Both the position numbers and the translations under genes were made by a program. Positions 41,188-56,922 of a DNA stretch of 64,000 nucleotides are shown piece by piece. A model generated the notes under the pieces. The model was not told the origin of the DNA, made no database searches, and was given only the letters and a program-made list of their open reading frames with translations. Origin of the DNA: an uncultured Thermoleophilia bacterium (GTDB taxonomy: Bacteria; Actinomycetota; Thermoleophilia; UBA2241); contig CAIOZS010000103.1 of the NCBI GenBank assembly GCA_903862845.1, forward strand, positions 6,187 through 70,186, written 5' to 3'. Position 1 is the first letter of the stretch. Each line of letters starts with the position of its first letter.

Positions 41188-41412
41188 GTGACAGAAGTGG
41201 CAGTCGAGAAAGCAATTGCATCCAGCAGCCTGGCCGAGGTGATCGACCGGATTCTGGACAAGGGCCTTGTGGTCGACGCATGGGTTCGTGTATCCCTCGT
41301 GGGTATCGAGCTTCTCGCGATCGAGGCTCGCGTCGTGGTCGCCGGGGTTGACACCTGGCTCAAGTACGCCGAAGCCGTTGGTCTTACGTCCAGCGAGGCG
41401 GTCCCGGCCTAA
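41188..41412 (+). CDS. gvpA: Gas vesicle structural protein GvpA
   Basis: [55 protein letters not shown] is near-identical to canonical GvpA. GTG start with a GGAGG SD. Confidence 0.95.
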
Positions 41413-41447
41413 GGGTGACCTTGGTCGATGGTTGAAGGAAGCGCGGT

Positions 41448-41478
41448 GACTGGCGTCGCAAGACTCGCAACGCCAGTC
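41448..41478 (+). terminator. Perfect 9-bp-stem hairpin (GACTGGCGT-13 nt-ACGCCAGTC) just downstream of gvpA; possible attenuator/terminator
   Basis: Inverted repeat seen directly. Weak T-content after it. Confidence 0.35.
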
Positions 41479-41546
41479 GCCGCGCCTCTTTGATGTAGGC
41501 GGTCGATTCGTCGGCCGCCCCGAGACCGAGCACTAGGAGGTGAGAC

Positions 41547-53583: not shown

Positions 53584-54606
53584 GTGTCGCCGGTCGGACT
53601 GGGTCTGCGCGGCGCCGGCGACGATCTGGAGCTCAAGCCCATCCGCGAGCGCGGCGGTGCCCTCAACGACCTCCTCGAGAGGCTGCTCAACAAGGGCGTG
53701 GTCGTCGATCTCGACCTGGTGATCGGCGTGGCCGGCATCCCCCTCATCGGGGTGAGCCTGCGCGCCGCCGTGGCCGCCATCGAGACCATGATCGAGTACG
53801 GCTTCATGCAGGCCTGGGACGAAGACACGCGCCGCTACGCCGAGCGCGAGCTGCAGCGCAAGAAGCTTGACTACGCCCCCGGCGAGGTCGCCACCCTCGA
53901 GATGTTCGGCTCGCACTGGTACGCCGACCGCATCTATCGGGCGTGGCGTCCGGGCCGCCTGTATCTCACCGACCGCCGCCTCATCCTCTACCGCAAATCG
54001 CCGGCCGAGGTGCTCTTCGAGACCCCCCTGCAGAGCATCCGCGGCATGGCGGTCGCCGAGTCGGTGCACTTCAATGGCAGGGTCACGCCCCTGTTGCACC
54101 TGGCCCTCGAGTCGGAGGAGCAGGTGTCGATCTACGCCGAGGATCTGCCGGCTCTCGAAGCGGCGCTGCACGACCGGCTGCAGGAGCTGGGCGTGCATCT
54201 CACGGAGACGGTCAACACCTGCGAGCGCGACGCCGACGTCAGGGAGGCCTTCCCCGACCATCGCCTGCTGGCCGACGGCAGGATGTGGCGCGAGGCCCCC
54301 GGCGGCGTCGGCCAGGAAGCCGTGATGTGGCAGGCCGGCTGGCTGTACCTCACCAGCGAAGGGCTGGTGTGGTGGTCCGAGAGTGAGCGGCGGACGCTGG
54401 TGCGCATCCCTGTGGCCGACATCATCACTGTGGGCGTCGAGGAGCGCGACCTCGGTCCTCTGCTGGGCGCCACAGCGGTGCTCGGCGTGCGCTACCGCGA
54501 GCGCGGCCGCCAGAAGACGGTGCTATTCGCCGGCAAGGGTCCGGACGAGTGGCGCCGCGGCATCCGCCGGGTGGTCGTCGACTATGACGGCGGAGGCCTG
54601 CCGTGA
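53584..54606 (+). CDS. GvpA/J/M-family paralog with a long C-terminal extension containing two PH/GRAM-like segments
   Basis: GTG start. N-terminal LNDLLERLLNKGVVVDLDLVIGVAGIPLIGVSLRAAVAAIETM, then GRLYLTDRRLILYR and AGWLYLTSEGLVWW motifs. Confidence 0.65.
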   Translation: MSPVGLGLRGAGDDLELKPIRERGGALNDLLERLLNKGVVVDLDLVIGVAGIPLIGVSLRAAVAAIETMIEYGFMQAWDEDTRRYAERELQRKKLDYAPGEVATLEMFGSHWYADRIYRAWRPGRLYLTDRRLILYRKSPAEVLFETPLQSIRGMAVAESVHFNGRVTPLLHLALESEEQVSIYAEDLPALEAALHDRLQELGVHLTETVNTCERDADVREAFPDHRLLADGRMWREAPGGVGQEAVMWQAGWLYLTSEGLVWWSESERRTLVRIPVADIITVGVEERDLGPLLGATAVLGVRYRERGRQKTVLFAGKGPDEWRRGIRRVVVDYDGGGLP

Positions 54607-54926
54607 TCGACATCGACGAGGGCAACCTCAAACAGGGGCTGCTGGGGCTCGTTATCGCCCTCGTGGAGGTCATCGAGGACGCGCTGTCCACGCAGGCCTT
54701 CAGGCGCGTCGAGAGCGGGCATCTGACCGAGGCCGAGATGGAGCGCCTCGGCGAGGCGCTCTCCGACCTGCACGTGGCGCTCGCCCAGATCAAGGAGGAG
54801 CACGGCGTCACCGACGCCGTGCAGCAGGTCAGGGACGGCCTCGACGAGCTGGTCGACGAGGTGGTCGACCGCATGATCAACCCCGAGCGCTGGCGTGAGG
54901 AAGTAGCCCGCGCGGAAGCTGAGTGA
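54603..54926 (+). CDS. gvpK: Gas vesicle protein GvpK
   Basis: IDIDEGNLKQGLLGLVIALVEVIEDAL...ERLGEAL pattern of GvpK. Confidence 0.85.
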   Translation: MIDIDEGNLKQGLLGLVIALVEVIEDALSTQAFRRVESGHLTEAEMERLGEALSDLHVALAQIKEEHGVTDAVQQVRDGLDELVDEVVDRMINPERWREEVARAEAE

Positions 54927-56086
54927 TACGTGCGCGTACACCAGTGGGGCCGGGCAAGGGCGAGGACGACGCAGCTCTGCTGCGCAGTCAGGGGGGCTTC
55001 ATCCCCCAGTGGTCGTCGGCGTGGCGCCTCGGCGAGCTGTTCCTCTTTGCCGACAAGCTCGCCTTCGCGCAGCCGGGCAAGCCGCGCTTCGAGTTGTCGC
55101 TGGCCACGGTCACCGACGTCGCCATGGAGCGCCGCAAGTTCATCCTGCTGCACAAGGACGTGGTCAAGCTCACCTACGTCCTGCCGAACCAGAAGCGCTC
55201 GCGGCTGGCCTGGTTCATCACCGCGGACGCCGGCCGATGGTTCGACGAGATCATGACGCTGACCAAGGCCGGCCGGGCGGCTGCCGCGAAGGACGGTGCC
55301 CGGGCGCCGGACCGGGCGCGTGGCGCCGGCGCCTCCCGCCCGCCGGGTGGCGCCGGCGCTTCACGCCCGTCCCCGCAGCCGGGCGCCGGCGGTGAGCCCG
55401 TGATCGTGCGCGAGGAGCAGGTCGAGGAGCTGGCCGTCACGCTGAGCCCGGCCGGAGCCCGCATCCTTCGGCATCTCTGGGAGCGACGCCACGCTGATAT
55501 CAAGGAGCTCGCCCAGGTGGCCGACTCACGCTCGCACATGGAAGTGCTGACCTTGCTGCGCGAGGGCATCAACGGCGCCGCGGAGCGCCTGTTCGGCCAC
55601 CCGGTGCTGGTGTTCAAGGAGCGCGCCCTGGACCGCGTGAGCGGGCGCGCCGTTACCTTTCAGTGGTGGCTGGAGCGCGCCGACGAGACCGGCGAGGCCG
55701 AGTCCGAAGGTGACGTGGATGCCCGGTTCGACCTCGAGGCCGGGCCCGGGCGGGTGGCCGCGCCGGAGGCCGGCGCCTCGCAAGCAGAGGCCGGAGGGCC
55801 GGCGCCGCCGGCTCTCGACGCGGCCGAGCCGTTCGTCGAGATTCACGACGAAGGCGAGACCCTGGTGGTCGTCGTCATGGGGCAGGGGGTCGGCGCCGAG
55901 ACGGTCAGGGCGCCTCAGGTGCAGGACGGCGACACGCTCGTGGTGGCGCTGCAGACGGCTGCCGGACGGCGCGAGCTCCGCGTGCCTCTGCCGTGCGTCG
56001 TGCTGGACGCCCCGCTCACGGCGACAAACGCAAACGGGGTCGCGAGCCTCACGTTGGTCAAAGTAGTCCGAGAGGAAAGGCGATGA
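54923..56086 (+). CDS. Hypothetical protein: N-terminal PH/GRAM-like segment, Ala/Gly/Pro-rich linker, C-terminal beta-rich (Hsp20/CS-like?) region
   Basis: WRLGELFLFADKLAFAQPG..; C-terminal FVEIHDEGETLVVVVMGQGV...LVVALQTAAGRRELRVPLP. Confidence 0.45.
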   Translation: MIRARTPVGPGKGEDDAALLRSQGGFIPQWSSAWRLGELFLFADKLAFAQPGKPRFELSLATVTDVAMERRKFILLHKDVVKLTYVLPNQKRSRLAWFITADAGRWFDEIMTLTKAGRAAAAKDGARAPDRARGAGASRPPGGAGASRPSPQPGAGGEPVIVREEQVEELAVTLSPAGARILRHLWERRHADIKELAQVADSRSHMEVLTLLREGINGAAERLFGHPVLVFKERALDRVSGRAVTFQWWLERADETGEAESEGDVDARFDLEAGPGRVAAPEAGASQAEAGGPAPPALDAAEPFVEIHDEGETLVVVVMGQGVGAETVRAPQVQDGDTLVVALQTAAGRRELRVPLPCVVLDAPLTATNANGVASLTLVKVVREERR

Positions 56087-56922
56087 GCATGCCAGAAGAC
56101 GCAGTCGCGACGCAGGATCTGGTGGCCCGGTACGTGTATTGCGTGGTGCTGGGTGAGGTCGGCGACTGGGAGCTGCGCGGGCTGGACGAGCGGCCGGTGC
56201 GCGGCATCTCCGCCGCCGGCCTCACCGCCCTTGTGCACGACTGTCCCGCCGCGCCCTACCAGGGCGACGACGAGGAACGCGTCAAAGTGTGGGTGCTCGC
56301 CCACGGCGACGTGGTCGACGCCGCCTGGGAGCGCACGGGCACCGTCCTGCCCATGAGCTTCGACCGCATCGTCCGCCCGGAAGCCGGCGTGGATGCGGAC
56401 GCCCAGGTGGCGCGCTGGCTGACCGCGGAGGCCGACGGCTTTCGGGCCATGCTCGAGCGCCTGCGCGGCAAGGTGGAGCTCGGCGTGCAGCTCCTGTGGG
56501 AACCGCGCGTGATCGCCGAGGCAGTGGCCGCCAGCGATGCGCAGGTCCAGGCGCTGCAGGCGGAGATGGCCGGCAAGTCCAAGGGCGCCGCCTACTTCTC
56601 GCAGCAGAAGATCGAGCGTGCTCTGCGGCAGGCGCTCACGGCCCGGGCCGAAGAGGACTATCGCGCCTGCTTCCGGCAGATCACCGCCCTTTTCCCGGAG
56701 GTGTGCGTCAACGAGCTGAAGAAGCTGCCGGACCGCAAGATGATCCTCAACCTCTCGGTGCTTGTGCCCCGGGAGCGGGTCTCCGAGCTGGGCGCGCTGC
56801 TCACGGGCTTCCAGAGCGAGGGTGTCGAGGTGCGCTTCACCGGCCCTTGGCCGCCCTACAGCTTCGTCCACGCCTCCCAAGCCGAGGCGGAGCCTCCGGC
56901 GGACCTCGCGGACGCCGAGTAA
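56083..56922 (+). CDS. Gas vesicle protein GvpF/GvpL family (third copy)
   Basis: RYVYCVV..., C-terminal FTGPWPPYSF. Confidence 0.85.
   Translation: MSMPEDAVATQDLVARYVYCVVLGEVGDWELRGLDERPVRGISAAGLTALVHDCPAAPYQGDDEERVKVWVLAHGDVVDAAWERTGTVLPMSFDRIVRPEAGVDADAQVARWLTAEADGFRAMLERLRGKVELGVQLLWEPRVIAEAVAASDAQVQALQAEMAGKSKGAAYFSQQKIERALRQALTARAEEDYRACFRQITALFPEVCVNELKKLPDRKMILNLSVLVPRERVSELGALLTGFQSEGVEVRFTGPWPPYSFVHASQAEAEPPADLADAE

Follow-up and report, generated by a model that had tools for sequence, protein, structure and literature searches.

The window, i.e., the whole 64-kb stretch of DNA that was analysed, carries 20 tightly packed, co-directional genes on the + strand between positions 41188 and 56922, as determined by GC3-based gene calling and translation, with genes for a sensor kinase and two response regulators upstream. 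In the list below, bit scores are given against the respective cut-offs.

37878–39893, +, GAF-PAS-HisKA-HATPase sensor kinase (Pfam)
39850–40254, +, receiver-only response regulator (translation)
40257–40979, +, OmpR-type response regulator (translation; syntenic Response_reg+Trans_reg_C genes in relatives)
41188–41412, +, gvpA, major shell protein, 74 aa (PF00741, 59 vs. 25)
41547–43220, +, GvpC-like repeat protein, 557 aa, directly after gvpA (TRF period of 99 nt)
43447–44250, +, conserved protein p268, stop overlapping the gvpN start by 4 nt
44247–45266, +, gvpN, AAA+ (AAA_5/MoxR-like) ATPase (PF07728, 73.4 vs. 22)
45271–46019, +, two small paralogous coiled-coil proteins, 102 and 147 aa, with a stop/start overlap
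46040–46633, +, Hsp20/GvpH-type small heat-shock protein (PF00011, 30.7 vs. 20.8; PF05455 GvpH, 24.8 vs. 22)
46649–47683, +, zincin-like putative metalloprotease, 344 aa, HEHAH at residues 127–131
47676–48446, +, gvpF/L paralogue 1 (PF06386, 232.7 vs. 23.6)
48455–48712, +, gvpG (PF05120, 88.1 vs. 30.6)
48795–49058, +, gvpO (PF05800, 84.7 vs. 25)
49106–49501, +, zinc-finger protein 1, six CxxCxGxG motifs, no J-domain (PF00684, 35.1 vs. 32.7)
49541–49900, +, zinc-finger protein 2, six CxxCxGxG motifs (PF00684, 48.6 vs. 32.7)
49958–52096, +, CDC48/VAT-type double-ring AAA+ unfoldase, 712 aa (TIGR01243, NCBIfam, 927 vs. 802.65)
52111–53154, +, GvpF/L with a C-terminal J-domain, GvpF-J (PF06386, 188.8 vs. 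23.6; PF00226 DnaJ, 36.6 vs. 27.8)
53184–53582, +, second GvpA-family protein, 132 aa, C-terminal CPQC...CPWC zinc ribbon (PF00741, 59.5)
53584–54606, +, GvpJ-like protein with a GvpA-family domain, GvpJ-PH, 340 aa, start revised (PF00741, 48.9 vs. 25)
54603–54926, +, gvpK (PF05121, 62.7 vs. 25)
54923–56086, +, p387, weak C-terminal Hsp20-like region (NF041800, only 20.9)
56083–56922, +, gvpF/L paralogue 3, start revised (PF06386, 218 vs. 23.6)

Stop and start codons overlap by 4–8 nt at six gene junctions between 41188 and 56922, and the remaining intergenic gaps do not exceed 57 nt, except those between gvpA and the next gene (134 nt) and at the junction after that (226 nt). Pfam matches were judged against curated gathering cut-offs. 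The canonical gvp set that had originally been predicted here (GvpA, GvpN, three GvpF/L proteins, GvpG, GvpO, GvpJ, and GvpK) exceeded them throughout, and the predicted chaperone domains (Hsp20, two paralogues consisting only of cysteine-rich zinc fingers, GvpF-J with its HPD motif, and the CDC48-like protein) were all above their HMM cut-offs as well. The domains named in the original prediction stood, but its gene list had overlooked the zincin-like protein, the second GvpA-family gene, and the GvpC-like protein. The long open reading frame 53374–54606 is not a single gene: it resolves into the GvpA-family gene at 53184–53582 and the GvpJ-PH gene at 53584–54606. The genes called independently for an identical metagenome contig show the same split, the former product being given 131 aa there. 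Gene calling on an identical contig gives an 87-aa product for gvpO, and an alternative ATG start is present at 48768.

The GvpC-like protein contains nine repeats, spaced by 33 residues five times and by 51 residues three times, a PEPK-rich linker, and a C-terminal helix-hairpin-helix tail (weak HHH_5 match); it has no match to GvpC in Pfam. In the GvpJ-like protein, two weak PH/GRAM-like domains were seen, with GRAM, GLUE, and CheF matches all below their cut-offs. The two small coiled-coil proteins are 45% identical to each other, match no Pfam or NCBIfam family above cut-off, and have clear full-length homologues in Thermoleophilia-type loci; sB147-like matches elsewhere are weak and partial (some Chloroflexota and one alphaproteobacterial locus).

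The Hsp20/GvpH-type protein scored 135.1 with NF041800, slightly below the cut-off of 140. Its domain assignment in the original prediction was correct, but it does not count as a novelty, since a GvpH-type protein is an already known gvp component. The two zinc-finger proteins are paralogues (56% identical) and also pass the Anti-TRAP Pfam cut-off; their family, with six CxxC pairs, was found in 41 loci, on the cluster strand in every one. The CDC48-like protein contains, according to Pfam, CDC48_N (86 vs. 35.1), CDC48_2 (35.5 vs. 22.4), two AAA domains (310.5), and two lids. In the PDB, it matches Thermoplasma VAT (5g4f) best, over the full length and with 764 bits. Walker A (at 231 and 506) and Walker B (at 286 and 561) are intact in both rings, and each ring carries one aromatic pore loop (KWYG at 263, MWVG at 538), as in the unfoldase VAT.

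In GvpF-J, the HPD motif occupies residues 287–289 within the J-domain, and about 25 conserved residues form a tail in addition to this domain. HPD is invariant in alignment A1, in which the fusion proteins are 45–87% identical, and is retained in 75 of 77 species-level GvpF-J loci; only 2 of the 120 best homologous protein clusters do not have both the GvpF and the J-domain. PDB entries matched by the family profile include GvpF as well as J-domains of DnaJ. The AF2 model (pLDDT 91.1) supports a fold of GvpF plus J-domain: in Foldseek comparisons, the predicted body resembles GvpF (6l5d, TM 0.80) and the predicted tail resembles a DnaK-bound J-domain (5nro_B, TM 0.81).

The recurrence of the chaperone genes in relatives, a comparison proposed with the original prediction, was examined in 80 species-level loci from at least 13 phylum-level lineages. 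These loci were anchored on the GvpF-J fusion, so that all the frequencies are conditional on having it; the 48 loci whose upstream sequence extends over 7 kb or more were taken as informative. Among the latter, the CDC48-like gene and the Hsp20 gene were each found in 45, and the zinc-finger proteins in 33, being absent from most Chloroflexia-type and all Alphaproteobacteria loci. In 51 of 55 loci, the CDC48-like gene lies directly 5' of the GvpF-J gene, on the same strand and no more than 800 nt away; the median distance between its stop and the GvpF-J start is 66 nt. The pair occurs in Actinomycetota, Chloroflexota, Alphaproteobacteria, Ignavibacteria, Nitrospirota, Latescibacteria, Aerophobetes, and others. 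In Chloroflexales ZM16-3, whose genome record is not flagged as a MAG, the whole syntenic cluster is present, including the kinase and the regulator. The conserved cluster genes p268 and p387 had also been absent from the original gene list. Homologues of p268, which has no Pfam match and no PDB sequence match, are present in 23 of the 48 informative loci (25 invariant columns in alignment A3), and homologues of p387 with a coverage of at least 95% in 8 loci.

Response_reg+Trans_reg_C genes lie immediately upstream of gvpA in loci L003, L004, and L087, and L087 has a GAF/PAS kinase with a response regulator at the equivalent position. The sensor kinase at 37878–39893 likely regulates the gvp cluster.

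No DnaK gene is present within the 64-kb window. In 11 related clusters, a DnaK/Hsp70 gene directly follows the last gvp gene, starting 14–418 nt downstream (in L074, it is a full Hsp70 gene with 743 bits), which backs the recruitment of Hsp70 inferred originally. Five DnaK-bearing clusters show no CDC48 gene in the sequence available, two of them (L079 and L080) with the full 10 kb upstream, and CDC48 and the J/Hsp70 axis are therefore separable.

The cluster shares GvpA, J-type GvpA-like proteins, GvpF/L, GvpG, GvpK, GvpN, GvpO, a GvpH-type small heat-shock protein, and a GvpC-like repeat protein after gvpA with canonical clusters (Halobacterium gvpACNO/DEFGHIJKLM, cyanobacterial gvpA-C-N-J-K-F-G-V-W, Bacillus megaterium, and Serratia 39006). 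In contrast to them, it additionally encodes the CDC48/VAT ATPase, the GvpF/L-fused J-domain, the zinc-finger-only proteins, the zincin-like protein, and PH-like extensions on GvpJ, and some relatives add DnaK. None of these additions is mentioned in the gas-vesicle reviews consulted (PMC9501494). In the literature searched, no paper connects gas vesicles with a J-domain or a cluster-encoded CDC48, in line with the novelty originally claimed, and the J-domain, CDC48, and zinc-finger parts of gvp clusters appear undescribed there. Hsp20/GvpH is already known in gvp clusters, as are ArsA/Get3-like ATPases in others: the latter occur together with Hsp20 in Pelodictyon, Polaribacter, Geobacter uraniireducens, and cyanobacteria, and were proposed to power a biogenesis step (PMC2963123). 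Those clusters set a precedent for gvp genes accompanied by Hsp20 and by a second ATPase of chaperone type, but their ATPase is a P-loop NTPase rather than a CDC48 AAA+ unfoldase, and J-domain and zinc-finger proteins are absent from their description.

The zinc-finger proteins carry CxxCxGxG repeats like the DnaJ cysteine-rich domain and Anti-TRAP, but contrary to DnaJ they have six motifs rather than four and lack a J-domain and client-binding beta-domains. Plant BSD2-type proteins, which are zinc-finger-only assembly chaperones, offer an analogy. HscB and HscA, encoded in the isc operon, are a client-specific J-protein and its dedicated Hsp70. GvpF-J resembles HscB in that its J-domain is attached to a module for client binding and its gene lies with those of the pathway it serves, with a dedicated Hsp70 in the 11 clusters above; however, this module has the GvpF fold instead of the HscB helical domain, the cluster in the window has no Hsp70, and the sequence relationship is confined to the J-domain. 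In the IbpAB–DnaK/DnaJ–ClpB disaggregation network, a small heat-shock protein is combined with a J-protein/Hsp70 pair and with a threading motor, a double-ring AAA+ protein. By analogy, the gvp cluster would have an equivalent functional triad, with a hypothetical Hsp70–CDC48 coupling, but with a motor of the CDC48/VAT type, which has a CDC48_N + CDC48_2 N-domain and no M-domain. This motor is similar to archaeal VAT over its full length, with the same N-D1-D2 architecture and an aromatic pore loop in each ring. Contrary to VAT and actinobacterial Cpa, its gene lies inside a gas-vesicle operon, adjoining a J-protein gene, and its C-terminus has no conserved HbYX-type motif for docking to the 20S proteasome.

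Taken together, these results make a chaperone module dedicated to gas vesicles well supported. We consider the best explanation, with a probability of about 0.6, to be a gvp cluster with a dedicated proteostasis network for Gvp proteins, whose mechanism we infer. A tentative alternative, possible but considerably less probable, is that the module serves disassembly or turnover, in which gas vesicles, or the GvpC-like layer around them, would be removed or recycled by CDC48 together with the zincin-like protease and with Hsp70 directed there by GvpF-J. Buoyancy would then be lowered, or protein salvaged from collapsed vesicles. The VAT-type pore loops point to a processive unfoldase, an assembly ATPase is already supplied by GvpN, and the upstream sensor kinase and regulators suggest regulated buoyancy. 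Additionally, 25 of the 48 informative loci encode a conserved zincin-like protein with an HExxH motif; half of the clusters, however, lack it, and the missing HbYX tail also argues against turnover. Moreover, the small or negative gaps indicate translational coupling with assembly genes, as a result of which degradation machinery would be produced along with the structure.

It is doubtful that the cluster makes no buoyant gas vesicles in its source organism and has another role, e.g., in protecting against stress or in a different assembly based on GvpA. Uncultured Thermoleophilia MAGs, for which no phenotype is on record, are the nearest relatives, and no paper linking Thermoleophilia with gas vesicles was found in the literature search. 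Gas-vesicle production by soil actinomycetes with gvp clusters is debated, and we know of no Streptomyces gvp cluster shown to yield visible vesicles. However, the canonical set is full (GvpA, N, F/L, G, J, K, and O with a GvpC-like protein), and clusters of the same type are found in mesophilic Chloroflexales, among them Oscillochloris-type ones; gas vesicles have been imaged in this group (PMC7332563). That general stress genes without a specific gvp link sit here by chance has nothing in its favor beyond the commonness of Hsp20, AAA+, and J-domain proteins among such genes, and is contradicted by synteny kept over at least 13 phylum-level lineages with CDC48 adjoining GvpF-J almost everywhere, by the near-universal fusion of the J-domain to GvpF in the best 120 protein clusters, and by start/stop codons overlapping those of gvp genes, which makes it extremely improbable.

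In a dedicated proteostasis network, the GvpF body of GvpF-J would bind monomeric GvpA-family shell proteins, as reported for Halobacterium GvpF, which binds monomeric GvpA and was proposed as its chaperone (PMC9501494). The J-domain would dock DnaK/Hsp70, assumed here to be a housekeeping copy and cluster-encoded in some relatives, and stimulate ATP hydrolysis, with the very hydrophobic shell protein being captured and then passed on in a controlled way. Gvp proteins that are unassembled or misassembled may be bound by the GvpH-type and six-motif zinc-finger proteins, which would serve as holdases without a need for ATP. The VAT-like CDC48 may thread and unfold misassembled, aggregated, or collapsed-shell GvpA, or strip assembly factors, and the unfolded subunits would return to assembly or be degraded, perhaps by the zincin-like protein; for the unfoldase, a role in turnover or recycling and one in the ATP-driven remodelling of Gvp assembly intermediates, as first suggested, are equally conceivable. 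A need for such handling is consistent with the aggregation of GvpA, GvpJ, and GvpM without helpers (PMC9501494) and with the proteotoxic stress caused by gas-vesicle expression in E. coli (PMC12848028).

As judged from sequence, the region is a complete gas-vesicle gene cluster, probably of a Thermoleophilia-type actinobacterium, and belongs to a widespread type whose gvp genes would be interleaved with such a network. Its logic would resemble that of the general bacterial IbpAB–DnaKJ–ClpB network, with organelle-specific parts and with CDC48 taking the position of ClpB; the small heat-shock protein, the J-protein/Hsp70 pair, and the AAA+ unfoldase may together handle the aggregation-prone GvpA-family shell proteins of a single organelle.

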